Shown piece after piece: positions 11,517 through 30,397 of a stretch of DNA of 32,000 bases (the first letter of the stretch is position 1; the number at the start of each line of letters is the position of its first letter). The notes under the pieces are model-generated. The model ran no database searches and was not told where the DNA came from. It saw only the letters and a program-made list of their open reading frames with translations. The position numbers and the translations under genes are program-made. Source of the DNA: Xylanibacter ruminicola 23 (GTDB lineage: Bacteria; Bacteroidota; Bacteroidia; Bacteroidales; Bacteroidaceae); assembly GCF_000025925.1 (NCBI RefSeq), contig NC_014033.1, positions 390,001-422,000 on the forward strand, written 5' to 3'.

Positions 11517-11547
11517 AAATATGCTTAAAAGATGTTAATACTGCAGA

Positions 11548-12564
11548 TTATTTATCTTTTGTGATTCTATACCCTAGACGCTGCACAAGTTCGAGAGTGC
11601 CTCGTGCCATAATACGATCGTATTTCTTTTCACTTTCAGTTAGATCGCTGTAGGGAACAAGGTCAGGGTGTTTCTTATGTTTGTCATCGCGTACGTCACC
11701 ATATGTCCACTTATCTTCTATTCTGGCTTTTGCCCAAATGTCATGAGCATTTTCGGCTATGGCTTCCATTAGCTCCTCTAGATCTCCTTCAAGTTTAAAA
11801 CTACTTGCATCAATGGGAGATGGATTGTATTTCCGAACACCTCGCTTTGTTACAGATATAATATAATAATGTGAATCCTGCCATGCAAACATAAAGTTAG
11901 TAGTAGGATGAGTTTCTTCCTGGGCATGCTGTGGGTCGTAGATACGTACCTGTTTGTCGTTGGCAGATAGAACCACTACGGCATGATTAGGTATATTCCG
12001 TTCCGTATTGTTGCTATATAGTTTGTCGGCATTTACAACTGCTATGATTTTACATCCATCATTTAACTCTTTGTTAATGAGATCGTATTCGCAATCGTAG
12101 CGGCGTACTACCGAGAGACGATAAAATTCTGACAGTAGTCTACCGATATGGTGTAGTGGGGTGCCACCAACCTTAAGCCAACCTTTTCCTCGTGATTGTT
12201 CTGTAAGTGATTCTACCGTAGTTTTTATGCCGAATTGTTGTAATAAGTAATGTTCACAACGAACCACGCAATCGTTAGGAGCTTTCATGTCGTGACCATA
12301 CTCTCTGCTTTTGGCCGCCAGCCTGTACATAGGGAGATATGTTGCCGTCATCGAAATGACATTTGCAGGCGATACCTTTTGGGTTCGCTCTTTACTGATG
12401 TGTATATCTGCCAACTTGTTTGATATTGACATCATGATTTCTATTTCTTCCTTTAGGTCGGGATTTTGCTCCGCCGCTAGGAGTATCATTTCGGTTTCTT
12501 CGCCGGTTGCTTTTCCTGCATAAAACCGCGACATCAGTTCGTTTGTTATTCTTTGCTTAGCCAT
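11548..12564 (-). CDS. Fusion protein: anti-sigma-like N-terminal segment + papain-like (C39-like) cysteine peptidase domain + C-terminal RyR domain
   Basis: The start is taken at Met30 of the track ORF (ATG 12562-12564), which gives an 8-nt overlap with the upstream gene rather than 95 nt. N-terminus: MAKQRITNELMSRFYAGKATGEETEMILLAAEQNPDLKEE, the pattern of an anti-sigma N-terminal helix pair. Middle: Cys/His pair in NDCVVRCEHYLL ... IPNHAVVVL ... IYDPQ. C-terminus: AIAENAHDIWAKARIEDKWTYGDVRDDKHKKHPDLVPYSDLTESEKKYDR, matching the RyR (PF02026-type) consensus. Confidence 0.55.
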   Translation of the reverse strand: MAKQRITNELMSRFYAGKATGEETEMILLAAEQNPDLKEEIEIMMSISNKLADIHISKERTQKVSPANVISMTATYLPMYRLAAKSREYGHDMKAPNDCVVRCEHYLLQQFGIKTTVESLTEQSRGKGWLKVGGTPLHHIGRLLSEFYRLSVVRRYDCEYDLINKELNDGCKIIAVVNADKLYSNNTERNIPNHAVVVLSANDKQVRIYDPQHAQEETHPTTNFMFAWQDSHYYIISVTKRGVRKYNPSPIDASSFKLEGDLEELMEAIAENAHDIWAKARIEDKWTYGDVRDDKHKKHPDLVPYSDLTESEKKYDRIMARGTLELVQRLGYRITKDK

Positions 12565-16900: not shown

Positions 16901-17314
16901 ATTGTCATAGCGACACCAGTAGTGCCCCATCTCGTCAAAGAGTCTTTTTTTGAATTCCTTCAGTTCGGGTGTTTCTTCTTCTCCTGGTTTCAAATCTTTG
17001 CAATATGTATATACCTTTGGAGATGATTTTTCTTTGAATTCATCTGAAGCTATATTGAACTCCTCTACAGTAAACTCTCCTGCTTTCTTGTGGAATAAGG
17101 CTAAGAAGATATCACTCTGTCGTACATAATCGTTGTATTCGTCCTGTTTACGTTTATCATTATAGGCAGAATCATAGTCTTCCCATTCAAACAGTTTTAT
17201 TCGAATGCCACGTTTCTCATACATATTATCCAAACGACGAACCAGATTACCGAACGCCATTCGATCGTAATCCATTTCCTCTGATGATGCCAGGAATATC
17301 TTGATAGTCTTCAT
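13955..17314 (-). CDS. Large sensor-like protein: DUF4062/TIR-like N-domain + coiled coil + 10-11 TPR (42-aa, KLC-type) + ~4-5 Sel1 repeats
   Basis: 1119 aa. N-domain: MKTIKIFLASSEEMDYDRMAFGNLV...VRQSDIFLALFHKKAGEFTVEEFNIA...PKVYTY (beta-alpha Rossmannoid pattern like DUF4062). Residues about 170-400 are coiled coil. Then ten near-identical HPDTAxSYNNIGxVYxxLGNYDKALEYHKKALDIREKVLGKE units. Then Sel1 units (GDARAQYNLGLIYEYGKGIEPNLDKAIELYRMAAEQ and similar). Confidence 0.7.
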   Translation of the reverse strand: MKTIKIFLASSEEMDYDRMAFGNLVRRLDNMYEKRGIRIKLFEWEDYDSAYNDKRKQDEYNDYVRQSDIFLALFHKKAGEFTVEEFNIASDEFKEKSSPKVYTYCKDLKPGEEETPELKEFKKRLFDEMGHYWCRYDNRESLQFQFVMQLQLVESSQMDNVKVEDGVVTINGLPFAKMENLKFAAANEDFLRMQTDIHELRKEIEEMQIELEKKQRRLDTKKAKLEETPDDEDCQEDYNYIKKDVEKLIDNLQPKLNKYNKLKEDFAQHQELLFNTAKRVAKLQGEEINDRIRRAMDALNEGLVREANTILNEAEEDAKCLLNEYKQSKEITEQKRQNLIISIKELSLKATSIMADASILIDERIKQAEEIYKLADAIAQEINYDQDKYIDFFWEYSGFLRDHAIFDNAIEIHNRQIKMCEDFHGKVHPDTARSYNNIGIVNDCLGNYDKALKYFEQALNIREKILGKEHPDTVRTYSNIGIVYYDFGNYDKALEYHKHALDIREKVLGKEHLDTADSYNNIGLVYFDFGNYDKALEFHKKALDIREKVLGKDHLDTTGSYNNIGIGYYHLGNYDKALEYHKHALEICEKVLGKEHPNTAMAYTNIGLVYLELGDYNKALEYQKQALNILEKVLGKEHLGTARLYSNIGNVYSEIGNYDKALEFHKKALYIREKILGKEHSDTAGSYNNIGNVYKDIGNYDHALEFHKKALDIREKVWDKEHPDTASSYNNIGNTYNDLGNYDKALECHKHALDICEKVLGKEHPNTAMAYNNIGNVYNNLGNYDKALEYYKQALEIRKKVHGKDHPDTASSYYNIGVLYKDIGNYDHALEYYMIALEIREKVLGAEHPDTVRTYRKLGHLYLNIGDNNLASQWLEKAATLGDTNAQFYIGHMYEIGKGVEKNYVVAAEWYSKAAEQGDARAQYNLGLIYEYGKGIEPNLDKAIELYRMAAEQSHVLAQNQLGVKYRLGQGVEQNGEKAFDLIYKAAEGGYSVAQNNLGWMYANGCGTEQNYEKAIEWYKKSAENGYKKAYNGIAWTLHLSGRYEEALPWAEKAVAAFPETPYIIDTLASVYQDLGRYDEALEEFELCLKLKHEQNESDDSIHQTEEKIATLKELMKNG
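14774..16033 (-). repeat. Coding tandem array of 126-bp TPR units with a 504-bp (4-unit) higher-order repeat
   Basis: Ten consecutive 42-codon units. gccatagctgtattaggatg(t/c)tccttgccaaggactttctcgcagat(g/t)tctaaagcatgcttatga occurs at 15006 and again at 15510, exactly 504 nt apart. Spurious repeat-derived ORFs appear in other frames of the track (for example 15055-15426 and 15109-15516). Confidence 0.85.
17043..17314 (-). repeat. Near-identical 272-bp segment shared with 19547-19818 (5' ends of the two TPR genes)
   Basis: Hand comparison finds 4 mismatches in 272 nt, all synonymous. The offset is exactly 2504 nt. Identity falls sharply 3' of this block. Confidence 0.9.
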
Positions 17315-17319: not shown

Positions 17320-19818
17320 TTAGTGCAATTTGGTTTGTATTTCTTTCAGTCTATTTTGACTATCAACTGCTTCTGGATGATCTTCTGGTAGCAAATCGAT
17401 AGCCTCTTTGAATTTATTGCGGGCCATTTCCAAATTTCCCATCAAAGCATAGACGCGTCCTAACCTATTGAGATAGCTGGCTTTTGCAGTCGTGTCTTCT
17501 ATCTTTACTGCAATTTCGTAAGCTTTACTTATATACTCAATGGCTTTCTCGTATAACGTCAAGTCCCTATATTGTGCTCCAACATTGTTATATGCAATAG
17601 CGGTTTTAATTGAATTGTTACCCGAATTGCGAAGATGATAATCTATTTCTTTTTGGCGATATATTAAGGCATTATGATAATCTTCAATTTCACGATAAAT
17701 GGTTCCTATAAGATTATAAGATTTGAGAACATCAGGATGATCCTTTCCTAAAACCTTCTCTTGTATATCCAGGGCCTTCTTATAATGCTCAAGTGCTTTA
17801 TGATAATCACCTTGACTGTCATAAATGCCACCGATACAGTAATTTGTCTTGGCAGTTTCAAGGTGTTCCTTTCCCAATGTCCTTTCTTGGATTTCAAGAG
17901 CCTTAAGGTAATAATGTAAAGCTTTCTGATGGTCACCCATTAAGTCATATGGTACCCCAATATTGTGATAGGATTGAGCTGTATGGGGATGATCTTTTCC
18001 CAATACCTTTTCCCTGATTTTTAAAGCCAAAAGATGATTGTCAAGCCCCTTTTGGTATTCACCAATATCATCATATAGGCACCCAATGTTATTATAAACT
18101 TTTGCCGTTTCTGGATGATTGATTCCTAAGGCCTCTTTATCAACGTTTATCGCTTTGTTATAGTAATCTAGTGCCTTCTGATAATCACCCATGTCATGAT
18201 ATACAATACCGATATTGTTATACAACTTTGCCGTCTCAGGATGATTAATGCCTAAGATCTTTTCATCAACAACCAATGCCTTTAGATGGTATTCCAATGC
18301 TTTTGAGTACTCACCCATATCCTCTAAAAGACACCCAATATTATTGTATGCTGTTGAAGTATAATCATTTTCGGCACCAAGTATTCTTTCATAAATATCA
18401 AGCGCTTTCCTGAAATACTCCATAGCTTTGGGGTAGTCAACCATTTGGTTGTATATTAAACCAATATTGTTGTAGGATGTTGCTGTTTGAAGATCAGCCT
18501 TCCCCAGTACTTCTTCACGTATTTCTTGAGCCCTGAAATGATATTTTAATGCATCTGTGTATTTACCCATGTCATCATAAAGACAGCCAACATTATTGTA
18601 AGCTATTGCTGTGTCGGAGTGAATCTCTCCATATATTTCTTCTGACAACACAATCAGTCGTTTATAGATATCTTCGGCTTGTGAATATCGGGCATATTTC
18701 TTTAGAAAATCTCCATAATCGAGAAGGATCTGGGCGAATTTGTTTTTGTCGTACTCAGCAACTTTTGACATTTCATCAGCTTGAGCATATAGGTTCTCTG
18801 TGCTTTCGATACGTTCCTCAATAGGTATGCTTGCATCTGCCATTATGGTGGAGGTCTTCAATAATAACTCTTCGATGGAGTTGATAACTGCTTGGCGTTT
18901 CAAATCAGTAATCTCTTTACTCTGTTTATAATCCTCTAGATTCCTGCGAGCATCTGCTTCTGCTTCATCTAAAATGATATTTGCCTCTCGAACTTTTCCA
19001 TCGTTGAAAGCATCCATAGCTCTTCGCATGCGCTCGGTTATACGTTCGCCCTGTAATTGGGCAATACGTTTGGCCGTATCGAATAGGATTTGTTGGTACT
19101 CATTAAAATCTTTTTTCAACTGGTTGTAACGGTTGAGTTTCGTTTGTAAGTCATCCTGAAGATCTTCATCATCAGGGAATTTCTCGAGACGCAGACGGGC
19201 TTTTTCTATTTTTGGGGGCAAAGATGCCAGTTCCTCATTCATCTTTATGAATTCCTCATTGCGTGATGCAAATTTTAGTTTACCCATTGATGCAATTGGA
19301 AGACCATTGATGGTTACATTCCCGTCTTCAACTTTCATATCCGTCATTTGGTTGCTTTCAACCAATTGCAGTTGCATGACGAACTGGAACTGGAGACTCT
19401 CGCGATTATCATAGCGGCACCAAAAGTGCCCCATCTCATCAAAGAGCTGTTTCTTAAAATCTTTTAGTTCTGGTGTTTCTTCTTCGCCTGTTTTCAAATC
19501 TTTGCAATAGGTATATACCTTTGGAGATGCTTTTTCTTTGAATTCTTCTGAAGCTATATTGAACTCCTCTACAGTAAACTCTCCTGCTTTCTTGTGGAAT
19601 AAGGCTAAGAAGATATCACTCTGTCGTACATAATCGTTGTATTCGTCCTGTTTACGTTTATCATTATAGGCAGAATCATAGTCTTCCCATTCAAACAGTT
19701 TTATTCGAATACCACGTTTCTCATACATATTATCCAAACGACGAACCAGATTACCAAATGCCATTCGATCGTAATCCATTTCCTCTGATGATGCCAGAAA
19801 TATCTTGATAGTCTTCAT
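17320..19818 (-). CDS. Sensor-like protein: DUF4062/TIR-like N-domain + coiled coil + ~9-10 TPR
   Basis: 832 aa. The first 90 residues are identical to ORF 13955-17314 and similarity continues to about residue 165. Then coiled coil and divergent 42-aa TPR units (...TAIAYNNVGCLYDDMGKYTDALKYHFRAQEIREEVLGK...). Confidence 0.7.
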   Translation of the reverse strand: MKTIKIFLASSEEMDYDRMAFGNLVRRLDNMYEKRGIRIKLFEWEDYDSAYNDKRKQDEYNDYVRQSDIFLALFHKKAGEFTVEEFNIASEEFKEKASPKVYTYCKDLKTGEEETPELKDFKKQLFDEMGHFWCRYDNRESLQFQFVMQLQLVESNQMTDMKVEDGNVTINGLPIASMGKLKFASRNEEFIKMNEELASLPPKIEKARLRLEKFPDDEDLQDDLQTKLNRYNQLKKDFNEYQQILFDTAKRIAQLQGERITERMRRAMDAFNDGKVREANIILDEAEADARRNLEDYKQSKEITDLKRQAVINSIEELLLKTSTIMADASIPIEERIESTENLYAQADEMSKVAEYDKNKFAQILLDYGDFLKKYARYSQAEDIYKRLIVLSEEIYGEIHSDTAIAYNNVGCLYDDMGKYTDALKYHFRAQEIREEVLGKADLQTATSYNNIGLIYNQMVDYPKAMEYFRKALDIYERILGAENDYTSTAYNNIGCLLEDMGEYSKALEYHLKALVVDEKILGINHPETAKLYNNIGIVYHDMGDYQKALDYYNKAINVDKEALGINHPETAKVYNNIGCLYDDIGEYQKGLDNHLLALKIREKVLGKDHPHTAQSYHNIGVPYDLMGDHQKALHYYLKALEIQERTLGKEHLETAKTNYCIGGIYDSQGDYHKALEHYKKALDIQEKVLGKDHPDVLKSYNLIGTIYREIEDYHNALIYRQKEIDYHLRNSGNNSIKTAIAYNNVGAQYRDLTLYEKAIEYISKAYEIAVKIEDTTAKASYLNRLGRVYALMGNLEMARNKFKEAIDLLPEDHPEAVDSQNRLKEIQTKLH
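19547..19818 (-). repeat. Near-identical 272-bp segment shared with 17043-17314
   Basis: See 17043-17314. Confidence 0.9.
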
Positions 19819-19839
19819 AAATGCGAATGTTTTAACGAT

Positions 19840-21165
19840 TTATATTCCGAATTTGCCGTAGCGGCCACCTACATCTTTGTGGTGGTACCAGCTTTTGCGA
19901 TTGAGCCAGGTGAATCCATTGTTCTTTGTGATTACGGCCAGGTCTATGGGGCCACCAACACTTTCTTGTGAGAAGGTCATGTGGCGCTCAAAGCTGGTCA
20001 TGGCGATAAGATTCTCTGCCAAGTTTGCCATGTCCTGAACACTATAGTTGTTGAGTGCCTTCAGCCATTGACGACGTTCTTCTACTAGAATCCGTTTTCC
20101 ATATTGCTTGAACTTGCGAGTCAGATCGTTTAATTTCACCTTGTTGAGTATAGCGTCAATCTCTTCGGATTCTTCCACCGACATACAATCAATGGATAGC
20201 TGTTTTTTTATCTCGTTAAACATATTCTCAGAAATACTACAAACATTTCTGAAGAAATGTGGTTCAACTCCTGTAAGCAGAGCATCCATAATATCTGTCT
20301 GAGCATACGGACAGATTGCAACGGGATTGGCATCGGATATGGCATGTATGTCTTCTGGATCAATATAGTAGCAGATGCGATTGTCAAATCCATGGCTGAC
20401 CATTACCCTAATCATTACTGGATATTCCTCGTCACTGCCGTATCCAGAAAATATAAGGTTGGTTTTGCCATACTCATATCCATATGTCATATATGAGAAA
20501 AAGCCTTCTATAAATAATTCTTTGATTTCAGACAATATGTCTTTTGGATATTCGTTTGAAAACGTGTCGTCTTCCTCAAACAAAGGTGAGTCTAAAACGG
20601 CAGTCTTCCTTGCAAAAAGATTATCAACCATAGAGTCGAGATACTCTTTAAATTGGTTGATGGTGTAATCTTTATACATGGGTAGTGGCGTAAACTCATG
20701 GAAGAATTTGATTCCGGATTCAATGCGCTTGTGAAACGCATCAACAATCTGTTTTTTGTTTGTAACTACTCTCTCCTCGTTTATGTTTATATCTGGTACT
20801 TGACACACTGCATCATCCCAGAATGAATGAAGCATGTTTCTTAGATAATTCCGTTGTATTTCCTCTGGAAAGAATATCTTCTCTGTTAACATATACGAGA
20901 AGAAATCATCGATACAGGCTTGGACGGTCGGGAATTGTATGTTGCCACGTTTCTGCCGATAACGGCGTATAATAACATCCCATGGAGTACAAAGAAAGGA
21001 TGCCGAGCCAACTATCATGACGCTAACGGGGCAGGCGTCAGACATTCTCAACATTTTGTTGGCTGAATTCTCAACCTTTTCGTTACCGTCTCGTGTCATC
21101 GTGACGGCACTATCTGCCGCAATTGCAATACCGCGCTTATTTAAAATGCCTACTACTGCTGTCAT
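19840..21165 (-). CDS. Proteasome beta/HslV-like Ntn (Thr1) hydrolase, predicted active subunit (pair 2)
   Basis: The start is preferred at the ATG 21163-21165, giving MTAVVGILNKRGIAIAADSAVTMTRDGNEKVENSANKMLRM (Thr1, Asp17, conserved Lys), as in ORF 8853-9815. The track start at 21195 would add a 10-aa hydrophobic leader (MFIWIIILTI) and overlap the upstream gene by 19 nt. Also contains FSGYGSDEEYP and the C-terminus ESVGGPIDLAVITKNNGFTWLNRKSWY...GKFGI. Confidence 0.6.
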   Translation of the reverse strand: MTAVVGILNKRGIAIAADSAVTMTRDGNEKVENSANKMLRMSDACPVSVMIVGSASFLCTPWDVIIRRYRQKRGNIQFPTVQACIDDFFSYMLTEKIFFPEEIQRNYLRNMLHSFWDDAVCQVPDININEERVVTNKKQIVDAFHKRIESGIKFFHEFTPLPMYKDYTINQFKEYLDSMVDNLFARKTAVLDSPLFEEDDTFSNEYPKDILSEIKELFIEGFFSYMTYGYEYGKTNLIFSGYGSDEEYPVMIRVMVSHGFDNRICYYIDPEDIHAISDANPVAICPYAQTDIMDALLTGVEPHFFRNVCSISENMFNEIKKQLSIDCMSVEESEEIDAILNKVKLNDLTRKFKQYGKRILVEERRQWLKALNNYSVQDMANLAENLIAMTSFERHMTFSQESVGGPIDLAVITKNNGFTWLNRKSWYHHKDVGGRYGKFGI

Positions 21166-22352: not shown

Positions 22353-22434
22353 AACATTTGTGCTGAAATATACAAGCAAAATTGCATTTATTTGTTTTTC
22401 TTATATCTATAAGTTCGATAAAAAGCAATGGTTC

Positions 22435-22500
22435 CTTCCTGTACATGTGAATAATTGAATAGTTGAATATTTTTTATCAAATCCTTGGAAGTTTGATGAG
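22435..22500 (+). repeat. Repeat family A copy 3 (core plus hairpin-like tail)
   Basis: cttcctgtacatgtgaataattgaatagttgaatat, then atcaaatccttggaagtttgat. Both the core and the tail are homologous to copy 4. Confidence 0.8.
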
Positions 22501-22507
22501 AAACACC

Positions 22508-22561: not shown

Positions 22562-22981
22562 ATGAGCTACACCTATAAATATCCACGTCCGGCAGTTACT
22601 GCCGACATGATTGTTCTGGCAGATAAGTCGGAACCTAAAATACTATTGATTCAACGTAGAGATGAACCCTTCAAAGGCTGTTGGGCATTTCCTGGCGGTT
22701 TTATGGATATGGATGAGACTACTGAACAATGCGCTATTCGCGAACTCAAGGAGGAAACAGGCCTTGAGGTAGGGGAGGTAAAACAAGTAGGCGCCTATTC
22801 ATCAGTCGACCGCGATCCACGTGGTCGCACCATCACTGTGGCTTACGTTGCTCACATACCTCAGGCACTTCCTGTTATGGGGCTCGACGATGCTGCCGAA
22901 GCCAAGTGGTGGCCTATTGATGCACTTCCACCACTGGCCTTCGATCATGCACAGATACTGCAAGATGCTTTAAAGGGATAA
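22562..22981 (+). CDS. NUDIX hydrolase (ADP-ribose pyrophosphatase-like size class)
   Basis: Perfect Nudix box GX5EX7REUXEEXGU: GFMDMDETTEQCAIRELKEETGL. 139 aa. Confidence 0.85.
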   Translation: MSYTYKYPRPAVTADMIVLADKSEPKILLIQRRDEPFKGCWAFPGGFMDMDETTEQCAIRELKEETGLEVGEVKQVGAYSSVDRDPRGRTITVAYVAHIPQALPVMGLDDAAEAKWWPIDALPPLAFDHAQILQDALKG

Positions 22982-23452
22982 TCATTTTTTTATCTTTATG
23001 TGCTCTTTGCTGATAACGCCATCGCGTACCAGTTCGATGATGTCATTTTCGGTCAGGCATCCATGGCAGAACAAGTGGAGGGCAGCTACCCCCCAGTCTA
23101 TAAATGGAGATGCATCGCTGTCATCTGTTTTTAGAGGTGCGCCGAGCGCTGCGTCATCAATGTATATGTTACCATATACTTTTGGTGATGAAGTCCAATC
23201 CTTCTGGCTGGGATTCTCATTCACACCATATAGTGGAATGTCACGTTCCTTAAACCAATCGAGTGCGGGCTGGAGTGTGTCTACGCCTTCAGAATCATGA
23301 CTTCTCATGGTGCTCAACAGTAGTTTATGCCCATTGTTTACCAATTTCCTTAATACTGGTACTGATCCTATATCTTCTCCGACGGCAGGGTAGCGATGCT
23401 TCACTACCGTACCGTCGAAGTCGAGTACTATGTAATAACTGTATTGAATCAT
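22982..23452 (-). CDS. Small HAD-superfamily phosphatase-like protein
   Basis: Motif I DxDxT (VLDFDGTV) and a distal acidic motif (IYIDDAA). 156 aa. It directly abuts the kinase gene stop codon (0-nt gap) and the convergent Nudix stop codon (0-nt gap). Confidence 0.65.
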   Translation of the reverse strand: MIQYSYYIVLDFDGTVVKHRYPAVGEDIGSVPVLRKLVNNGHKLLLSTMRSHDSEGVDTLQPALDWFKERDIPLYGVNENPSQKDWTSSPKVYGNIYIDDAALGAPLKTDDSDASPFIDWGVAALHLFCHGCLTENDIIELVRDGVISKEHIKIKK

Positions 23453-26086
23453 TTAGTCAAGTTTAATGTTCTCACATCCGGGGAAGAGGTTGAGGAAAGC
23501 CTGAGCATTAACAGGCCTTTCGTTTACGAATTGATAAAGGCCTTCAGCTATCGCCTCCTTCATTAGATCAGTACACTCAAGCATATCAAACATTATGTAT
23601 TTATCAGCATCCACGGTAATAGGTTTTGGAAGTTTTCCAGATAACATAGTGAATAATGTCGCAGCCACACTGTAGATGTCTGACTGGGGGCAGAAGTGCT
23701 TCATCGTACCTCTGGTGTTTTCTGGAGCCGAGAATCTGTCGTAGGAGTGTATATCTCCTCTTATTTCTGTGATATCCCCATTATCGTCATATTGCTGTGA
23801 TACTCCAAAGTCGATGAGCACAGCCTCGCCATTCTCGTCTATAACAATATTGTCTGGTTTGATGTCTAGATGTAGAATCCTGTGACTGTGCATAGCATGG
23901 AGAGCTTTACACAATGGGATGACGATCTTGTCTATAATCAGTTTCTCAGATGATGGAACTTGATCGTTGATTATCATGTCTTTGAGCGACTCTCCTGCAT
24001 AGAATTTCATTACGTAATATGTAGTGCCAGTAGCTTCATATTCAAATAATGACTTAACTTCTGTTACATGATTGTCAGCTATGTCGGCCATGCTAAGAAG
24101 GAATACAGGTTCACTACGGAACATTTTTCGCAGCGATTCAAACTCTGCCTCAAGTGTTTCATCGTACATTACTCTGCATGTCTTCTCGTTTTCTCGATAA
24201 CATGTGAGATCCCCAATTCCTCTTGGATAGAACTCCTTAATAGCAACGATTTCCTTCGAACCATTACTGCAATTAAGCATCTCTGCGCGATAGGTATAGC
24301 CAAATGCACCGCAAGAGATATAGTTTAAGATGGTGTATCTCTTGTTGTCATCTGTTAATTCGAATCCAGGAGGCAGGGCATCAGCTCCTTCTTCTTGTAT
24401 TTGTGCAGGTGCTTCAGCATTCTCTACGTCTGGCAGATCAAAATCTTCTACCTCTATATATAATATAAGGTTTAGGTAATCTTCTTCTGTCAATGGTTCT
24501 GGCACCATTTCATTTTGGCCATAGGGATGAAGTTGACGCCTTACATACGATTGGCTTAACTCGTCTGCAAGCCATTGTGGGTTTTCAAATCCATTAAGTG
24601 CAAATGCATAACCATCTTCAAAGAATGCTGATCCTATATCCGCATTGAAAAGTCTGGGCTCAGCAGGTCCTGAAGCATTAACTATTAAGCAGTCTTCGTC
24701 TAGGTAATAAGCCGGATTGAATAAGTTCTTGATAGGTCTTCTTTCAATATTCTCATCCCATCGATTACCATAATAGGTCTCGTTCCGGTTTATATAGGCC
24801 AGAATATGCTCATCTTCATCTATATTGTCAAGGTTATAAACCGCACGTGGTATCTTTGAGACAATATCACCTAACCTAACTTTTCCAAATCCTTTGCGAT
24901 CAGGCAGTTCTGATACGATAAGAGATTTGAGATACCCCTTTTTCTTGGCATTGCTAACCTTGATATATTCTGAGAACATATCATCCTCGATGAGTTCCTG
25001 CATAGATGTATGCTGGGCCAGTGGGTTCGTGCCATCTATAAACCGAATGAGTCCTTTAAAAACAGTGGTTTTCTGGGCATTTATCAATACGGCTACTTCT
25101 CCGAAGGGAAGCAAGGCGATGGTTTCAATCCAGTCGCGCTTCAGGGCTTCCTTAAAGTTTGCCGTCTCTTTCTCGAAGATCTCCTTCGGTAATACCATAC
25201 CTGCATAGCGACCTTTGAAGTCTGGATCATTCAAACATTTGCCTAGGCAAAAATCGAAGGCTGACTCGCCATTGATGAATCCGGTATATGTGGTGATAAC
25301 ATAGTCAATCTGCTTGCCGTTGAGCCATTGAGTAGAATCGCGCTGCAGGAAGTGCTCGTTTGATACCCCCATGCCGTAGTTCAGCAATAGTCCACCTGCA
25401 TAAATCTTGTCATTGGTATCACCATCACCAAAGTAATTGGTTTTTGATTGCAACATCGCACCTGCGATAGGACAACCGGCAAACGGGTTGTACACCAGTC
25501 CTTTGCCATCATATTGTAATAGCGCTTTCAGGGCATGGGCCACTCTCAAACGTGGACGCTTAGGTTGTATACCGGATTTATTCCAAATATGATTGAAGAT
25601 GTTCAGATACCTATCTTTTATATACGAAACTGGTGTGTTAAGCAGGGCTTCGGCTAGAACGAATGTTGCATACTGGCGCTGTGCTTTCTCGCTGGCTTCG
25701 TTGCTCGAATGATGCACCAGACGTCCTATCCTGTGATGATATTCGCGAACCACGTCTCGTTCATCGTTGTTCTTCAGAGTCGTATAAATCTGAAGCAGGC
25801 TGCGGCCAATCTCCATTTCCACTGCAATAGATGTTATTCCATCCTTAATCCATTTATTGACTCTTCGCTTCAGAGTCGCATCAAGATCCACCCACTCATA
25901 GTCGATAATTTCTTTGGGGTTGAGCACACATGCTGCAGTCTCAGGTTTGCTGTTTCCTGTAGCAATTCTTAGTTTTCCATTTGCAGCCAATGCCACCATC
26001 ATCAGCGGCATAAGCGTGTCTGGATTGTAGTGGTAGTAGTTTTCCACTGCATCAAAAAGTCTACTGGAGAATTCCTTTTTTGCCAT
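23453..26086 (-). CDS. Fusion protein: N-terminal N6-methyltransferase-like (apparently degenerate) region + C-terminal Ser/Thr protein kinase
   Basis: Kinase motifs: Gly loop CGAFGYTY, VAIKEF, catalytic loop HRILHLDIKPDNIV, LIDFGVS, FSAPE. The N-terminal ~400 aa contain LVYNPFAGCPIAGA (compare MTase motif I vyDPaCGsG) and WIETIALLPFGEVAV, but no clear NPPY/F motif. Confidence 0.7.
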   Translation of the reverse strand: MAKKEFSSRLFDAVENYYHYNPDTLMPLMMVALAANGKLRIATGNSKPETAACVLNPKEIIDYEWVDLDATLKRRVNKWIKDGITSIAVEMEIGRSLLQIYTTLKNNDERDVVREYHHRIGRLVHHSSNEASEKAQRQYATFVLAEALLNTPVSYIKDRYLNIFNHIWNKSGIQPKRPRLRVAHALKALLQYDGKGLVYNPFAGCPIAGAMLQSKTNYFGDGDTNDKIYAGGLLLNYGMGVSNEHFLQRDSTQWLNGKQIDYVITTYTGFINGESAFDFCLGKCLNDPDFKGRYAGMVLPKEIFEKETANFKEALKRDWIETIALLPFGEVAVLINAQKTTVFKGLIRFIDGTNPLAQHTSMQELIEDDMFSEYIKVSNAKKKGYLKSLIVSELPDRKGFGKVRLGDIVSKIPRAVYNLDNIDEDEHILAYINRNETYYGNRWDENIERRPIKNLFNPAYYLDEDCLIVNASGPAEPRLFNADIGSAFFEDGYAFALNGFENPQWLADELSQSYVRRQLHPYGQNEMVPEPLTEEDYLNLILYIEVEDFDLPDVENAEAPAQIQEEGADALPPGFELTDDNKRYTILNYISCGAFGYTYRAEMLNCSNGSKEIVAIKEFYPRGIGDLTCYRENEKTCRVMYDETLEAEFESLRKMFRSEPVFLLSMADIADNHVTEVKSLFEYEATGTTYYVMKFYAGESLKDMIINDQVPSSEKLIIDKIVIPLCKALHAMHSHRILHLDIKPDNIVIDENGEAVLIDFGVSQQYDDNGDITEIRGDIHSYDRFSAPENTRGTMKHFCPQSDIYSVAATLFTMLSGKLPKPITVDADKYIMFDMLECTDLMKEAIAEGLYQFVNERPVNAQAFLNLFPGCENIKLD

Positions 26087-26128
26087 AGGTCTTAGATATT
26101 AATGTAGAGTATAATACTTATTTTCCTG

Positions 26129-26136
26129 CAAATATA
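26129..26136 (-). promoter_or_regulatory. Canonical -7 box (TATATTTG on minus strand) for the kinase-HAD operon
   Basis: The complement of caaatata matches TAnnTTTG, about 43 nt upstream of the ATG at 26086. Confidence 0.45.
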
Positions 26137-26186
26137 TGCAATTCCTGTCTTTTTCCAAAGGAAAATCAAAAAAAGTTGCTATAATG

Positions 26187-26224
26187 TGTTAGATATTTCC
26201 TTTTTCGTGTACTATTATTATATA
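26187..26224 (+). promoter_or_regulatory. Island promoter-like motif m4
   Basis: tgttagatatttcctttttcgtgtactattattatata, 67 nt upstream of the ATG at 26254. It is preceded by CAAAAAAAGTTGCT, which is also present upstream of m5. Confidence 0.6.
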
Positions 26225-26253
26225 CGAATTATTTATCTAAACCCGTTTTATAT

Positions 26254-26802
26254 ATGGCAAATCTATTAGCAATCAGCATTCCTGTTAAGCGCGATCCTTC
26301 CTGGTCCGACTGGGCCAAGCGCACTCGTGCTAGTATCAAGGCTGCAGGTGTTCCTGTCAGCAGGTGGCAATTGTTGTTTTACCACATGACTATCCTATTC
26401 ATCGACGAAGACGCCTGTGTCGCCGACCTCACACCCGGCTTCGCTCAGGTCTTGAAATCATGTCCTGCCATACCGTTTATTGTCAATAAACTCGATGCCT
26501 TCACCACCACTAATGGTGCCGAACACATCATCTGTCTGTTGTCTACTCAGGTGCCACAGCAGATCCACAACCTTGCCAGCGACTCAAGGACGATGGCCGA
26601 CGGCCTCAATGCCAAATACGATCATCGTCCATTCATCCCCCATATCACCTTTGGACATGTGCCAGCCGACAAAATCTCGCTCCAGGAGTTGCGCACCATT
26701 CTTGAGGCTCTGCCACAGCCCTCATTCCATTGCCTTCTCAACGAGGCCGAACATCGCTATCGCCGCGGCAACGGCACCATCAAGAAATGGCGCCTCCGCT
26801 GA
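26254..26802 (+). CDS. 2H phosphoesterase superfamily protein (LigT/cyclic phosphodiesterase-like)
   Basis: Two HxT motifs at the expected spacing (YHMTILF and PHITFGH). 182 aa, the typical size for LigT-like proteins. Confidence 0.65.
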   Translation: MANLLAISIPVKRDPSWSDWAKRTRASIKAAGVPVSRWQLLFYHMTILFIDEDACVADLTPGFAQVLKSCPAIPFIVNKLDAFTTTNGAEHIICLLSTQVPQQIHNLASDSRTMADGLNAKYDHRPFIPHITFGHVPADKISLQELRTILEALPQPSFHCLLNEAEHRYRRGNGTIKKWRLR

Positions 26803-26816
26803 TAGTGCACTTTTTC

Positions 26817-26842
26817 CTCTCAAATACTTGCAAGTTTGAGAG
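26817..26842 (+). terminator. Terminator-like hairpin after the 2H phosphoesterase gene
   Basis: ctctcaaa-tacttgcaag-tttgagag, an 8-bp perfect stem 15 nt after the stop codon. No strong T-tract follows. Confidence 0.45.
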
Positions 26843-26850
26843 AAAATGTT

Positions 26851-26858
26851 TATCTTTG
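26851..26858 (+). promoter_or_regulatory. Canonical -7 box (TATCTTTG) for the PARG-NADAR-sigma-409aa operon
   Basis: Matches TAnnTTTG, 34 nt upstream of the ATG at 26892. Confidence 0.5.
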
Positions 26859-26891
26859 CAATATCAATAATAACTAAAAACAATTGTAATT

Positions 26892-27698
26892 ATGAATAAG
26901 TCGGATTATAGAAAGATTAACCGTGAAGTGATGACCGACACTAAACTCCAGTATGAAACAATACCAGAGTTGAAGGAGGCCGTGGAGAACTCGATTGAGC
27001 GACAGTATATGGTATCCCAAGAGGATAACATTGACCAACCAGTAGTCGACAGCAGCCATACCAAGTATCTCTGCTCTGGCAAGAGAAGCTTTGAGGCAGC
27101 TAAGGATTACAAGGGCAAGAAGGTTGCTGTGCTGAATTTCGCTAACAACCACACGATTGGAGGTGCACCATTCTCTGCAGGTGCCCAAGAGGAGTCGCTC
27201 TGCAGATGCTCTACATTGCTACCTTGCCTTGAAGCCATGAGCGAACCCTTCTACCAGAAGCATATTCGCCAATTCGAGTCAGGAGAGATTAACTATATGG
27301 GTAATGATGACTTGATCTACACCCCTGATGTGGTGGTCTTTAAAACAGATGAGCGCACTGACCCTATCTATCCTAAGATGATGGATCGAAGCGAATGGTA
27401 TAAGGTGGATGTAATTACAAGTGCAGCTCCGCAGTTGAGGAGAGTTCGCACACTCCCCGTCAACTACAATGACGTAATCTTTGGCCGCATTAAGAAGATA
27501 TTGGATGTGGCTGCCAAAGAGCATGTCGAAGTGCTGATTCTGGGAGCATGGGGCTGTGGAGCCTTCAAGAATGATGCAAAAGTAGTATCGGATACATTCT
27601 ATACATTACTGAAGAATTACAACTTCGAGGTAGTAGAATTTGCACTGTCTGACCCTGCCTACGTCACCAATTCCCCATTTAATAAGTGTAATAGTTAA
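26892..27698 (+). CDS. Bacterial-type poly(ADP-ribose) glycohydrolase-like macrodomain protein (TIGR02452/DUF2263 family)
   Basis: Family signature VAVLNFANNHTIGGAPFSAGAQEESLCRCSTL (GG-X-QEE PARG loop). C-terminal ...VLILGAWGCGAFKND. Confidence 0.8.
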   Translation: MNKSDYRKINREVMTDTKLQYETIPELKEAVENSIERQYMVSQEDNIDQPVVDSSHTKYLCSGKRSFEAAKDYKGKKVAVLNFANNHTIGGAPFSAGAQEESLCRCSTLLPCLEAMSEPFYQKHIRQFESGEINYMGNDDLIYTPDVVVFKTDERTDPIYPKMMDRSEWYKVDVITSAAPQLRRVRTLPVNYNDVIFGRIKKILDVAAKEHVEVLILGAWGCGAFKNDAKVVSDTFYTLLKNYNFEVVEFALSDPAYVTNSPFNKCNS

Positions 27699-27712
27699 TC
27701 CAAATTTCTAGT

Positions 27713-28213
27713 ATGAGAGTTACAGATAAACATATTTGTTTCTGGAATGAATGGCCCAGCAATTGGCATCCAGCCGAGTTTGATGTTGAAGTTAATGGTG
27801 TGAAATGTCATTTCTACAACACCGAACAGTACTTTATGTATATGAAGGCCATCGTGTTTGGCGATGAAGAAATTGCCAAACAGATATTGGAGGTAAGCGA
27901 CCCCAAGAAGGTAAAAGCACTTGGACGTAAGGTACAGAATTATGATGAGGCTGTATGGAACGAAAAGCGCTACCAGGTCATGCTTAAAGCCAACGTAGCA
28001 AAGTTCAGCCAGAACGAAGATCTAAAGCAATTGCTTCTCTCTCCAGAGTACGAAGGACATGGATTCGTAGAGGCCTCGCCTTATGATAAAGTCTGGGGTG
28101 TGCGAATGTTTGAGAGTAATCCCGACATTGATGACGAAACCAAATGGAAGGGACTCAACCTCCTGGGTAAAGTCCTCGACGAAACCCGCCGAATTGTAAG
28201 CCTATTAAAATAG
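27713..28213 (+). CDS. NADAR (DUF1768/YbiA-like) family protein
   Basis: FWNEWPSNWHPAEF...YNTEQYFMYMKA...ALGRKVQNYDEAVWNEKRYQVMLKANVAKFSQNEDLKQLLL...FVEASPYDKVWGV matches the NADAR family pattern. Confidence 0.85.
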   Translation: MRVTDKHICFWNEWPSNWHPAEFDVEVNGVKCHFYNTEQYFMYMKAIVFGDEEIAKQILEVSDPKKVKALGRKVQNYDEAVWNEKRYQVMLKANVAKFSQNEDLKQLLLSPEYEGHGFVEASPYDKVWGVRMFESNPDIDDETKWKGLNLLGKVLDETRRIVSLLK

Positions 28214-28220: not shown

Positions 28221-28937
28221 ATGTTTAAATCTGTTTCAAAGAATTATACCCCTGATTTCCTAGAGAGTTTCATGGCTAGGATTAGGGGAGTTAAAGCCCT
28301 TGACGAAGAACAAGAGGTTTATTTGGCTCAAAGGATCAAAGCTGGCGATACTAAGGCCGAAGAGCAAATGATTAAATCAAATCTGAAATTGGTTGTTTCA
28401 ATTGCCAACTCCTACCGCCCGATGATGTCTATGGAAGACTTGATTCAGAACGGCAATATCGGATTAATCAAGGCTGTTCGCGAATTTAATCCGGAACTCG
28501 GCTATCGTTTTGTCTTCTATGCCTCCATGATGATACGCAAATATATCATCATGGGCATTAGAAATGACTCCGGAATTGTCCATAGCTCTGATTATGAACA
28601 GGCTTTTATTTCGTCGGAATCTTTGGACGTGCCGGGTTCTGGCGGCTATAAAGATACATCCAAGGCCGATATGTTAGTAGGAGATATGGATGTGGAGTCT
28701 GATCTCGATAGTCTGTCCGCCGATTTGAAAAGAGCAATGTGCTCAGTTTTATCCCCCTGTGCGGTTGATATCGTGTGTAAGGTGATGGGCCTAGGTTGTA
28801 CTCCGATGTATACAGAAAGTATTGGAAAGGAACTGAACATGCCAAAGTCGCGTGTTCGTAAGATTTATCAAGAATCAATTGGAATTCTTCAGAACAATGA
28901 AAGAGTGAAAAAATTGCTTTCCTGCTATCAGCGTTAA
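28221..28937 (+). CDS. Sigma-70 family RNA polymerase sigma factor-like protein (238 aa)
   Basis: LDEEQEVYLAQRIKAGDTKAEEQMIKSNLKLVVSIANSYR...LIQNGNIGLIKAVREFNPELGYRFVFYASMMIRKYIIMGI (regions 1.2-2). C-terminal HTH-like IGKELNMPKSRVRKIYQESI. Same architecture as ORF 10710-11441, but the sequence is divergent. Confidence 0.7.
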   Translation: MFKSVSKNYTPDFLESFMARIRGVKALDEEQEVYLAQRIKAGDTKAEEQMIKSNLKLVVSIANSYRPMMSMEDLIQNGNIGLIKAVREFNPELGYRFVFYASMMIRKYIIMGIRNDSGIVHSSDYEQAFISSESLDVPGSGGYKDTSKADMLVGDMDVESDLDSLSADLKRAMCSVLSPCAVDIVCKVMGLGCTPMYTESIGKELNMPKSRVRKIYQESIGILQNNERVKKLLSCYQR

Positions 28938-28975: not shown

Positions 28976-30205
28976 ATGAGAAAACTGTGTTTTGATGAAG
29001 ATAAGTTGAATGAGTATTATTCTAACCATTTTGTTAGTGATCTGGAAGACTATTTTAGTATTCCCAATGATACGAATGAGATCAAGTATGTGGGTAAACC
29101 CCATTGGCCTTCCAGGATATTCTATCATTCCTCTGCCGAAGACCAGATGATGTTCATCGCCCTGACATCATATATGTTGGCAGCTGAGGAAGTCCTCATG
29201 CGCATAATCCCCAGTTCCCCGAACTATGAATTCTATGAGTGCCTGAATTTGTTTGGATATCCGATTGCGCCTATCGCAAAAGCCCGATACGGCCTTGAGA
29301 GTATGCTCGAACATTGTGAAATCAGTCAGAAATTCTGGTGCTTCGATGAGGTTGCTGCTTTGAGAGATGCTATGAAGGTTGTAGAACCCTTTATGAACGA
29401 AAGGTTCCAGCACCATATGAAGACATGGAACAACGGCTACTTCGCTGAGTATATAACCGATGACATCCCGGCCAAGATTCATCGTGTTATTACCGAAGGT
29501 CTTCAAATGCTCTATAGCAAACATTATACTTATCAGGGACTGACAGGAACAGTTCTGACTCACCGCGACTTTGCTGACTACTTCCCAAACCGCTTTTTTG
29601 AGCAGTTTAGGAAGTACTTTAGCTGTGCCACTGATAATGGCAACCATCTCGAGGTGCTGTATGTGTATGATCATGGTAATGAGCGGTGGGCTGATGAGAT
29701 GCCTGGGCAGACAGCGAAGGAAAACCTGCTCTTCGCCAGCATCATGCTCTATCAGGTGATTGCTGAGCAGAGTATTCTCGACGTCGCCCCTAAGGCTAGT
29801 AACGATTTCCACAAAGCATTCGGATGGCCTATGATCAGTTCCGGTCCAGGTGGTGGTCCTTATCTCCACCCATTGAAGATGCTGGAGTATGCCGGTCTGT
29901 CGCCCATGAAATATGAGGCACCTTTGCTCCTTGAGTATGTCAAGAAGGTGTTCTACTATCTTCGTCAGGAGATGAATACCATCCTCAATCGCAGAGATTC
30001 TGTCATCAAGGACAAGGAAGCTGCCAGTCGTTTCTTTGAACAGTGTGATGGTCATGCGAGGTCCAGAATCCGTAAATACTTAGACCGCCAGGAGAAGAGT
30101 ATTCAGGAGTTACTTGTCAAATGGACCACTTCGCCCGAAGACTGCTGGTACAAGATGCTTGAGAGCGAAGGCATACCCCTTATGATGCCTATAAAGGATT
30201 CATAA
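28976..30205 (+). CDS. Hypothetical protein (409 aa) with an internal two-fold duplication
   Basis: AEDQMMFIALTSYMLAAEEVLMRIIPSSPNYEFYECLNLFGYPI... parallels AKENLLFASIMLYQVIAEQSILDVAPKASNDFHKAFGWPMI.... It lies 38 nt downstream of the sigma-like gene. No family recognised. Confidence 0.6.
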   Translation: MRKLCFDEDKLNEYYSNHFVSDLEDYFSIPNDTNEIKYVGKPHWPSRIFYHSSAEDQMMFIALTSYMLAAEEVLMRIIPSSPNYEFYECLNLFGYPIAPIAKARYGLESMLEHCEISQKFWCFDEVAALRDAMKVVEPFMNERFQHHMKTWNNGYFAEYITDDIPAKIHRVITEGLQMLYSKHYTYQGLTGTVLTHRDFADYFPNRFFEQFRKYFSCATDNGNHLEVLYVYDHGNERWADEMPGQTAKENLLFASIMLYQVIAEQSILDVAPKASNDFHKAFGWPMISSGPGGGPYLHPLKMLEYAGLSPMKYEAPLLLEYVKKVFYYLRQEMNTILNRRDSVIKDKEAASRFFEQCDGHARSRIRKYLDRQEKSIQELLVKWTTSPEDCWYKMLESEGIPLMMPIKDS

Positions 30206-30237
30206 TCAGATTTCTACAGCATGAGGTGTAATACCCC

Positions 30238-30302
30238 CTTCCTGTACATGTGAATTAATGAATGTAGAATAATTCCCCTCAAATCCATGGTGGTTTGAGG
30301 GG
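30238..30302 (+). repeat. Repeat family A copy 4 (core plus 9-bp-stem hairpin 30275-30302 that may terminate the preceding operon)
   Basis: cttcctgtacatgtgaattaatgaatgtagaataatt, then cccctcaaa-tccatggtgg-tttgagggg, followed by aaatttctgtttt. Confidence 0.8.
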
Positions 30303-30359
30303 AAATTTCTGTTTTGTACATGCTCTCCAATAAAAAACTCAAAAAAAGTTGCTCATATA

Positions 30360-30397
30360 TGTTAGATATTCCATTTCTCGTGTGCTATATATATGAA
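30360..30397 (+). promoter_or_regulatory. Island promoter-like motif m5
   Basis: tgttagatattccatttctcgtgtgctatatatatgaa, 94 nt upstream of the ATG at 30454. It is preceded by CAAAAAAAGTTGCT, as in m4. Confidence 0.6.

Follow-up and report, generated by a model that had tools for sequence, protein, structure and literature searches.

ADP-ribose-processing enzymes in a defence-type island of Xylanibacter ruminicola 23: a candidate immunity and repair cassette

What role do the many 'orphan' PARG and NADAR genes of bacteria play? A locus that bears on this question lies on contig NC_014033.1 of Xylanibacter ruminicola 23, within the 32,000 nucleotides analysed here (positions 390,001 to 422,000 of the forward strand; hereafter the window, in whose coordinates all features are given). 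Between positions 22562 and 28213, genes for a Nudix hydrolase, a HAD-type phosphatase, a 2H phosphoesterase, a bacterial-type PARG and a NADAR-domain protein lie side by side, and an initial annotation made from the sequence had described them as one dense cluster of enzymes processing ADP-ribose and NAD-derived nucleotides. We propose, tentatively and with a probability of roughly 45%, that the locus is a stand-alone enzymatic immunity and repair cassette directed against foreign ADP-ribosylation, without a cognate transferase.

The interval contains three units rather than a single cluster: a lone Nudix gene; a kinase-HAD pair on the minus strand, without a gap between the two genes; and an operon that reads 2H, PARG, NADAR, a sigma-70-like gene (238 aa) and a gene for a 409-aa protein, with gaps of 90, 14, 7 and 38 nt and a terminator-like hairpin with a 13-bp stem at its 3' end (30273-30304). 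The last two operon genes fall outside the interval originally delimited, and the 877-aa kinase gene, which fills 47% of it, was missing from the title of the initial annotation. Two of its observations on gene order hold, namely that the Nudix and HAD genes converge with a 0-nt gap and that PARG, NADAR and the sigma-like gene are laid out as one transcription unit. The features are as follows.

22434..22505, plus strand: left copy of element A with a small hairpin, the left direct repeat of a 7.8-kb block
22562..22981, plus strand: Nudix hydrolase, 139 aa, of the ADP-ribose pyrophosphatase/NrtR-type clade, monocistronic (PF00293)
22982..23452, minus strand: BT0820-family HAD-type phosphatase, 156 aa (DFDGT motif, PDB 2OBB, NF046079)
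23453..26086, minus strand: methyltransferase-like/Ser-Thr kinase, 877 aa (Pkinase; AF2 and Foldseek)
26162..26226, plus strand: element B, in the divergent intergenic region between kinase and 2H genes (repeat search, promoter consensus)
26254..26802, plus strand: 2H (LigT/ThpR-like) phosphoesterase, 182 aa, operon gene 1 (PF02834, PF13563)
26892..27698, plus strand: bacterial-type PARG, a TIGR02452/DUF2263 macrodomain, 268 aa (PF10021, TIGR02452)
27713..28213, plus strand: NADAR-domain ADP-ribosyl (N-glycosidic) hydrolase, 166 aa (PF08719, TIGR02464)
28221..28937, plus strand: short sigma-70-family factor, 238 aa (PF04542, PF00140, TIGR02937)
28976..30205, plus strand: all-alpha two-domain protein of 409 aa, last operon gene (AF2 model)
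30237..30308, plus strand: right copy of element A with the 13-bp-stem hairpin, where both the operon and the 7.8-kb block end (repeat and hairpin search)

Four families of ADP-ribose enzymes

The five family signatures from which the cluster had been recognised were all confirmed by motifs and by matches in Pfam, NCBIfam or PDB. The Nudix protein matches PF00293 at 1.2e-24 (87.2 bits against a cut-off of 21.1) and its Nudix box, GFMDMDETTEQCAIRELKEETGL (residues 46-68, positions 22697-22765), fits the consensus GX5EX7REUXEEXGU perfectly. Its closest NCBIfam models are NrtR (3.4e-22) and NadM-Nudix (1e-21), with every score far under the equivalog cut-offs; since these are domains that bind or hydrolyse ADP-ribose, the resemblance fits a part in the disposal of released ADP-ribose. 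The 2H protein is recognised by PF02834 (8.7e-9; 35.9 bits against 23.3) and PF13563 (4.1e-8; 33.9 against 27), and its two motifs, HMT (H44-M-T, 26383-26391) and HIT (H130-I-T, 26641-26649), are invariant in 24-25 non-identical homologues. It resembles ThpR without being its equivalog, scoring 32 bits on TIGR02258, for which the cut-off is 65.7.

PARG is matched by PF10021 at 1.6e-23 (84.1 bits against 23.5) and by TIGR02452 with 131.8 bits against 50, as well as by the PARG structures of T. curvata and D. radiodurans (PDB 3SIG and 5ZDA; 3e-19 and 1e-17). Its catalytic QEE and the diphosphate loop align to both structures, as AQEE and GAWGCGAFKND in the case of T. curvata PARG, with QEE and GAWGCGxFxND conserved. 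The PARG loop, GGAPFSAGAQEE (27159-27194), departs from the usual signature in one position, reading IGG-X7-QEE instead of GGG-X6-8-QEE with the first glycine replaced, and 30 homologues share G90, G91, Q99, E100 and E101 without exception. NADAR, finally, matches PF08719 at 3.1e-44 (151.6 bits against 35.1), TIGR02464 with 145.7 bits against 73.7, PDB 8BAU at 3e-21 and the PADLOC model PDC-M42C at 1.4e-37.

The PARG clade is large (2871 matches at E<=1e-10), and at least 16 of the 120 best homologues of the window PARG are 2H-PARG fusion proteins. Such recurrent fusion suggests that the two activities probably share a substrate or follow one another in a pathway, by analogy with yeast, where Cpd1 (a 2H enzyme) and Poa1 (a macrodomain protein) process Appr>p consecutively. 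By the same analogy, RNA ends with a cyclic phosphate, or ADP-ribose cyclic phosphate, may be what they act on.

The known biochemistry of these families lends the combination a rationale. Bacterial PARGs reverse the 2'-OH RNA ADP-ribosylation of RhsP2, as well as 5'-phosphate ADP-ribosylation, and protect cells from RhsP2; NADARs are the sole hydrolases that reverse guanosine ADP-ribosylation, and the two families serve complementary, non-overlapping substrate linkages (PMC11833690). RNA-targeting ADP-ribosylating toxins can be neutralised by such enzymes both in vitro and in E. coli, and for stand-alone PARGs Lu et al. (NAR 2025, PMC11833690) suggest the role of a 'defence module against toxic attack'. 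Operons of NAD and ADP-ribose metabolism with macro, ARH and NADAR genes had been predicted earlier (de Souza and Aravind 2012, as related in PMC8120803).

How might a cassette of this kind work? Going by what the families do elsewhere, the ADP-ribosylation to be reversed would come from phage-encoded transferases or from toxins of competing bacteria. PARG would cleave ADP-ribose from ribose-2'-OH or terminal-phosphate linkages on RNA or DNA, plus PAR-type ribose-ribose bonds, and NADAR would remove N-glycosidic guanine-ADP-ribose adducts that lie out of PARG's reach. The 2H enzyme would work on that same damaged nucleic acid, or on a by-product, by opening cyclic phosphate ends of the 2',3' or the ADP-ribose-1'',2'' type, and Nudix would convert free ADP-ribose to AMP and ribose-5-phosphate. 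A sigma-70-family factor of its own and a promoter-like element shared with other island genes suggest that expression may be autonomous to the island. The kinase-HAD pair would be a separate, fixed module, composed of an inactive methyltransferase-like sensor, a Ser/Thr kinase and a phosphatase, that repeatedly travels with 2H, PARG or NADAR genes.

Gene neighbourhoods of PARG in related loci

Do these families keep company elsewhere? For comparison we assembled 80 metagenomic loci plus others, which reduced to 69 non-redundant loci of rumen and gut Bacteroidales, and used the window proteins, together with proteins encoded beside PARG, as queries against their six-frame open reading frames (ORFs). 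Scanning 285 kb of sequence within 3 kb of PARG and 206 kb at 5 kb or more from it, we find the ADP-ribose families to be about eightfold denser close to PARG, beyond chance. Counted as loci near versus far, 2H proteins occur in 17 versus 1, NADAR-like proteins in 10 versus 0, ARH in 5 versus 1, Nudix in 5 versus 1 and ADP-ribosyltransferases (ARTs) in 6 versus 1; sigma-like genes are near PARG in 9 loci and far from it in none. The clustering claimed by the initial annotation is thereby borne out. Nearly all related contigs originate from rumen or gut metagenomes, and the closest named relative of the window PARG belongs to a rumen Prevotella sp. metagenome-assembled genome (79% identity; a single-protein PARG scan of genome contigs that returned 3 loci).

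A Pfam census of 116 non-redundant immediate PARG neighbours gave a similar picture, with ADP_ribosyl_GH as the most frequent family (6), followed by DUF1810, LRR_5 and LigT_PEase (5 each), NADAR, ART-PolyVal/DUF3990 and SprT-like (3 each) and NUDIX (2). Between strains of 84-93% DNA identity, gene order is shuffled gene by gene: the locus termed L015 reads u409-PARG-NADAR-Nudix (u409 being a homologue of the 409-aa gene), L026 reads PARG-NADAR-Nudix-sigma and L014 reads 2H-PARG-NADAR, and Nudix orthologues adjoin PARG in L011, L015, L016, L017, L024 and L026. A transferase-less stack in L011 (7553-10807) consists of a DUF6939 gene (weakly NADAR-DarT1-like), ARH, a Nudix domain fused to an NrtR winged helix-turn-helix, and PARG. 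The NrtR-type regulator suggests that clusters of this type may be transcribed in response to ADP-ribose. The same DUF6939-ARH-Nudix/NrtR-PARG stack is listed for L063 (255-2551).

Different hydrolase families, NADAR, ARH or DUF6939, thus take the position beside PARG in different loci, an alternation that is typical of conflict systems. Defence genes found in the neighbourhood are GmrSD, type I/IIG restriction-modification genes, SLFN_AlbA_2, Mrr and Macro-TIR.

Could these enzymes instead serve housekeeping, in NAD/ADP-ribose salvage or RNA-end repair (disposal of Appr>p or ADP-ribose, or YbiA-like damage control), with no part in conflict? The NADAR protein does score above the domain cut-off of TIGR02464, 'riboflavin intermediates N-glycosidase', Nudix resembles NadM-Nudix and NrtR, 2H resembles ThpR, and the yeast pair Cpd1 and Poa1 sets a precedent for consecutive action on Appr>p. 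In D. radiodurans, moreover, PARG (DRB0099) lies in a ligase-PARG-Pnk repair operon between an RNA/DNA ligase (DRB0100) and an HD-phosphatase/polynucleotide kinase (DRB0098) (PMC11833690). This operon is like the present locus in combining PARG with end-processing enzymes, and 2H and HAD of the window could play analogous end-healing roles. Here, however, there is neither a ligase nor a P-loop polynucleotide kinase, the kinase being eukaryotic-like and fused to a methyltransferase-like domain. A purely metabolic function also sits badly with the patchy, strain-specific distribution of the genes, their gene-by-gene shuffling, the alternation of NADAR, ARH and DUF6939 beside PARG, the location in a low-GC defence island and, according to the Pfam annotation of the window, the absence of NAD biosynthesis, riboflavin, RNA ligase and Tpt1 genes nearby. 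We regard it as very improbable. The operons of de Souza and Aravind 2012, as far as PMC8120803 describes them, likewise show macrodomain, ARH, NADAR and Nudix genes co-clustering by guilt-by-association; they typically contain sirtuins, Tpt1/KptA or NAD-salvage enzymes, none of which is present here, whereas the 2H-PARG fusion, the sigma factor and the methyltransferase-like kinase with its HAD phosphatase are additions.

Several further gene families recur in these neighbourhoods. DUF1810 (PF08837), an uncharacterised family, is among the commonest immediate neighbours of PARG-clade genes (5/116), and a literature search on it returned nothing useful. Zinc-ribbon LRR_5 proteins (5), SprT-like proteins, DUF6717 and DUF2130 recur as well. 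Four genes for small proteins, u182 (5411-5959, plus strand) and u127 (7657-8040, plus strand) in the window and the WG-repeat-like d246 (15495-16235) and d114 (18571-18915) on its extension L001, reappear beside PARG or kinase genes in L009, L015, L018-21, L025, L067, L091 and L101, and would, judging by this recurrence, belong to the same shuffled gene pool.

Transferases and NAD consumers

Where, then, is the transferase? The initial annotation had recognised no ADP-ribosyltransferase in the window, and the profile searches it called for found none either. Pfam searches at E<=0.01 detected no ART, PARP, DarT, sirtuin or TIR domain in any window ORF, and lenient searches at E<=5 detected no ART, TIR or sirtuin domain in nine unassigned ORFs and the N-terminal region of the kinase. 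Queries taken from related loci (ART, PARP-like and ARH proteins) likewise gave no phmmer match below E=0.1 among six-frame ORFs of the window and of L001, a locus that extends the window (window coordinate = L001 coordinate + 16891; the analysis placed the window on contig BPTT01000001.1 of GCA_019973335.1, 3.58 Mb). The two large uncharacterised regions, the 409-aa protein and the N-terminus of the kinase, have predicted folds other than that of ARTs, all-alpha and methyltransferase-like, respectively. For the 409-aa protein an ART identity was ruled out by its all-alpha model and by a fold search of PDB without a match.

Most related loci resemble the window in this respect, with no transferase near PARG in 63 of 69 and an ART within 3 kb in the other six. 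L076 (65-2282) and L077 (9935-12066) read PARG-ART-NADAR, with an ART of ~198 aa that is ART-PolyVal/DUF3990-like at a sub-threshold score and a NADAR of the gp30.3-like subfamily; such an order probably represents a toxin-antitoxin-like form of the cluster. In L048-50, a membrane PARP-like protein is encoded 1.2 kb from PARG. Homologues of the L076/L077 ART are also present in L075, L057, L065 and L087. Known transferase/hydrolase pairs (DarT-DarG, DarT1-NADAR, PARP-PARG, Tre1-Tri1, DraT-DraG) use the same hydrolase families, macro/PARG, NADAR and ARH, and the few related loci with PARG-ART-NADAR or with a PARP-like protein plus PARG are organised alike. The window and the 63 loci differ from them in lacking a cognate transferase, and several hydrolase families are stacked here.

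A second possibility is that the cluster serves as the reset or antitoxin arm of an NAD consumer encoded in cis, be it a TIR-like-TPR protein, a Macro-TIR protein or an unrecognised ART. One version of this was among the two readings offered in the initial annotation, which named the adjacent TIR-like-TPR proteins as candidate NAD users. The only solid candidate for an NAD consumer near the cluster, going by its domains, is a Macro-TIR fusion of 376 aa (L001 16302-17432, minus strand; ~33193-34323 in window coordinates; TIR_2 at 3.7e-17, Macro at 7e-16), whose gene follows GmrSD at a distance of 3 kb downstream from the operon. Upstream, two giant TPR proteins are encoded in tandem (13955-17314 and 17320-19818, both on the minus strand) and share near-identical N-terminal domains of ~150 aa, followed by a coiled coil; the near-identity suggests recent duplication or gene conversion. 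ARTs flank PARG in the six loci described above, and three loci have a TPR gene no more than 3 kb from PARG (against one at 5 kb or more). Yet the N-terminal domain of the TPR proteins matches DUF4062 with only 21.2 bits (3.4e-4), under the Pfam cut-off of 24.7, and no PDB sequence, Macro-TIR has a single weak homologue among all loci, no ART was detected in the window, and the cluster and the TPR operon are transcribed separately. RyR and Ntn are absent within 3 kb of PARG from all 69 loci (at 5 kb or more, RyR occurs in one and Ntn in none), and the nearest relatives, L015 and L026, keep PARG-NADAR-Nudix without any RyR/Ntn/TPR module. Co-conservation with that module, which the initial annotation had proposed to examine, is therefore not found, its version of the reset arm fits the loci poorly, and we consider an in-cis reset arm of any kind unlikely. 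A literature search combining RyR with ADP-ribose clusters yielded nothing useful.

The data best fit a stand-alone cassette because complementary hydrolases are stacked, a transferase is usually missing, families alternate beside PARG and the whole is set in a shuffled low-GC island; the general notion of ADP-ribose-removing and -processing enzymes in a conflict context, which both earlier readings of the locus shared, is supported. Its nearest counterparts are the PARGs DRB0099 of D. radiodurans and SCO0909 of S. coelicolor, which are likewise TIGR02452/PF10021 proteins with QEE and a diphosphate loop and no cognate transferase, and the stand-alone PARGs as a group share the patchy, horizontally transferred distribution (PMC11833690). 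In contrast to these, the PARG examined here is part of an operon with NADAR, 2H (fused to it in many relatives), a sigma-70-family factor and the 409-aa protein, with Nudix and the kinase-HAD pair alongside, in a Bacteroidales defence island, a context not described in PMC11833690.

Several considerations weigh against the proposal. The predicted activities of the window enzymes are assigned by family, and the parts played in the scheme by the sigma factor, the 409-aa protein and the kinase-HAD pair are inferred only. The enrichment around PARG carries a partial bias: genes close to PARG supplied the seeds for ARH and ART and two of those for NADAR-like proteins (for 2H, Nudix, NADAR166 and sigma the window itself supplied the seeds, which are free of this bias). 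Many comparison contigs are short. With an ART beside PARG in 6/69 loci, some clusters are therefore true transferase/hydrolase pairs; a consumer of NAD may be encoded in cis, given Macro-TIR 3 kb downstream and two weakly TIR-like TPR genes upstream, and the 3.58-Mb genome may encode a transferase at another site.

Partner genes, island setting and significance

The 877-aa protein ends in a Ser/Thr kinase domain (Pkinase at 9.4e-25) that is closest to MAD6, PD-T4-6 and PglW, at scores far under their PADLOC and NCBIfam cut-offs. Its N-terminal ~600 aa (AF2 pLDDT 83.6) resemble type I/IIG N6-adenine DNA methyltransferases with target-recognition domains in Foldseek searches (1e-10 to 1e-7), and a profile of this region showed no sequence-level similarity to the methyltransferases of the collected loci. 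The catalytic [DNS]PP[YFWH] (NPPY-type) motif is present in 0 of 32 family members, which is why we take the methyltransferase-like domain to be probably a non-catalytic sensor. All 227 homologues of the kinase have the same ~870-aa architecture. Its HAD neighbour carries the motif I DxDxT in the form DFDGT (residues 11-15, 23408-23422) and is homologous over residues 8-105 to PDB 2OBB (BT_0820; 6e-12). It matches phrog_1238 and no Pfam family, and is a relative rather than an equivalog of the NCBIfam 'BT0820 family HAD-type phosphatase' (NF046079; 1e-18, 67.9 bits, cut-off 165).

In all five independent contexts available, the window and four others, a homologue of this HAD gene lies immediately downstream of the kinase gene. 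Two of these contexts contain ADP-ribose genes, L098/99 with the order DUF2130-2H-PARG-kinase-HAD on one strand and L101/102 with NADAR, 2H, u182 and TPR genes adjoining the pair, and abutting a tyrosine integrase; their kinases are merely 49-54% identical. In L103 the pair is accompanied by SLFN, TPR and AddAB-like genes and in L104 by SAM-lyase-like genes and a type ISP/IIG enzyme. HAD homologues also lie beside PARG without the kinase (L081, L084). The HAD gene is thus primarily a kinase partner and not clearly an ADP-ribose enzyme, so that the dense ADP-ribose cluster of the initial annotation stands for Nudix, 2H, PARG and NADAR and less so for HAD. Kinase and HAD form a mobile module of two genes, which accompanies the hydrolases in many cases though not in all.

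As a candidate kinase/phosphatase defence module, the pair matches no PADLOC or NCBIfam defence model above cut-off. The systems with the most similar kinase domains, MADS (MAD6), PD-T4-6 and BREX (PglW), are likewise associated with methyltransferase-type modules and defence islands. The window kinase, however, scores 80.8 bits against a MAD6 equivalog cut-off of 460, it carries its methyltransferase-like domain, in which the catalytic motif is missing, as a fusion, and a BT0820-type HAD partner is foreign to those systems. SAM-lyase-family (PF23780) genes recur in these islands: one is found in the window (8271-8840, minus strand), two in L104 flank the kinase-HAD pair (6891-7862 and 11306-12340), one in L058 (2511-3089) is beside PARG, and a 1525-aa type IIG restriction enzyme in L005 (4648-9222) has weak internal similarity to the family.

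The sigma-like protein matches TIGR02937 with 80.5 bits against 42.9 (residues 46-225), PF04542 at 7.5e-13 and also PF00140; regions 1.2, 2 and 4 were detected, region 3 was not, and there is similarity to MzaA. The 409-aa protein, which belongs to a family of ~50, has no match in Pfam, PHROGs, PADLOC or NCBIfam at E-value cut-offs from 0.001 to 5, and its AF2 model (pLDDT 86.6) is all-alpha with two domains. A homologue lies upstream of PARG in L015. The protein has an internal tandem duplication, and one homologue, P0141, combines it with BspA-type LRRs in a fusion. Several cassettes in these islands appear to begin with a sigma-like gene. In L094, pairs of a sigma-70-like gene (~291 aa) and an AAA ATPase gene (~570 aa) occur twice in one island (1835-4502 and 17350-19969), which also holds SLFN_AlbA_2, Metallophos, DUF2130, LRR_5 and HNH genes and a homologue of the 409-aa gene.

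Two repeated elements, neither expected by chance in a single copy (0 expected), are found in the island. Element A (CCTTCCTGTACATGTGAATAATTGAAT..., ~40 nt) has plus-strand copies at 4971-4997, 5305-5331, 22434-22460 and 30237-30263, of which the latter two are longer (~75 nt), contain a hairpin and flank the 7.8-kb block from Nudix to the 409-aa gene on either side. The left one of these starts 128 nt upstream of the Nudix start codon, where a consensus promoter-like site is also found. Element B (…GTTAGATATTTCCTTTTTCGTGTACTATTATTATA…, ~40 nt) has strong plus-strand copies at 5349-5375, 26188-26214 and 30361-30387, which precede u182, the 2H operon and GmrSD, respectively; at 2H it ends 28 nt before the start codon. 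It overlaps a match to a classical -35/-10 promoter (TAGATA-17-TATTAT), and weaker copies lie upstream of RmuC, upstream of the u183 operon and in L101 and L103. Element B may be a promoter shared within the island and read by the island's own sigma-like factors. A role for element A as a cassette recombination site is unsupported, as the element was not found in loci of other strains, and integron-like cassettes were rejected on the grounds that gaps of 7-90 nt between the genes leave no room for attC sites.

One might go further and imagine a 'counter-takeover' circuit, in which the short sigma-70 factor would read element B and keep the hydrolases and neighbouring defence genes expressed under attack by an invader that modifies the host's transcription and translation machinery with ADP-ribose or takes it over, 2H-PARG would repair RNA that has been ADP-ribosylated and cleaved, and kinase and HAD would form a sensor-switch. 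This we regard as a long shot.

What kind of DNA is this? Core genes for RND and MatE efflux and an M15 peptidase occupy the left flank, and GC content changes from 0.48-0.52 in this core flank to 0.37-0.46 in the island, from ~3.4 kb to past the window end. The island encodes AAA_14/DUF4143, RmuC, the SAM-lyase-like gene, two sigma-like genes, RyR proteins, the two TPR giants and GmrSD, with the Macro-TIR gene in the same stretch just beyond the window end. It is a low-GC stretch with a gene set typical of a defence island, and most likely a horizontally acquired, highly shuffled island of defence or immunity type in a rumen Prevotella-like bacterium. A search for an empty site without the block, through exact matches to the RmuC and RyR proteins, recovered the same strain arrangement and nothing else. 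Three independent metagenome contigs (L113, L114, L115), each matching the window at 100% identity, all break at 21180, at a junction between two Ntn-like genes, and one of them has a 33-nt inverted end, which points to a strain-variable or repeat-associated breakpoint near that position. A differing neighbour in L114 turned out to be a spurious ORF. Scans of the window found no Rfam match and, over its 32 kb, no tRNA.

Acquired islands also raise the converse possibility, put forward in the initial annotation as well, that the genes are anti-defence cargo of a mobile element and neutralise host ADP-ribosylation or ADP-ribose-signal immunity such as DarTG, CmdTAC, Thoeris and similar systems. 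Phages do use these families: PHROGs holds Nudix, HAD, kinase, NADAR and sigma families, and hundreds of phage genomes have homologues at <60% identity (717 records for NADAR, 372 for Nudix, 98 for sigma and 20 for PARG). Prevotella phages account for 15 of the 20 PARG records, those listed being Lak megaphages (MK250019-MK250029; ~31-35% identity), and for 15 records in each of the NADAR and sigma searches, which indicates that the same enzyme families are deployed phage-side in the host genus. The SAM-lyase-like gene, the direct repeats that bracket the block, the low GC content, the tyrosine integrase abutting L101 and the ART-PolyVal-like genes, typical of mobile elements, close to PARG in some loci could be read in the same sense. 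Neither PARG, kinase nor sigma, however, has close relatives in IMG/VR (scans of viral contigs with the sigma gene and the PARG and kinase alignments), PARG and sigma have none in INPHARED and PARG has none in PLSDB; the best phage and plasmid PARGs are 39% and 51% identical, and megablast of 8000-30300 against phages and plasmids returned nothing relevant. The Pfam-based annotation of the 32-kb window contains no integrase, relaxase, conjugation, capsid, terminase or other phage-structural genes, the flank consists of core genes, and what surrounds the locus is restriction enzymes and further defence genes rather than the backbone of an element. We deem the cargo interpretation quite unlikely.

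What, then, does the locus say about 'orphan' PARG and NADAR genes? The window and ~70 related loci offer natural genomic support for the idea of free-standing defence enzymes, and would extend it. Complementary hydrolases (PARG, NADAR or ARH, 2H, Nudix) are stacked, often fused (2H-PARG) and usually without a transferase, and they are set among restriction and abortive-infection genes, at times with a dedicated sigma factor and a methyltransferase-like kinase. If this is true, dominant gut and rumen bacteria would possess a broad-spectrum 'damage-reversal' layer of immunity, and new enzymes, the 2H-PARG fusion among them, as well as the DUF1810 family that recurs beside PARG, would be there to study.

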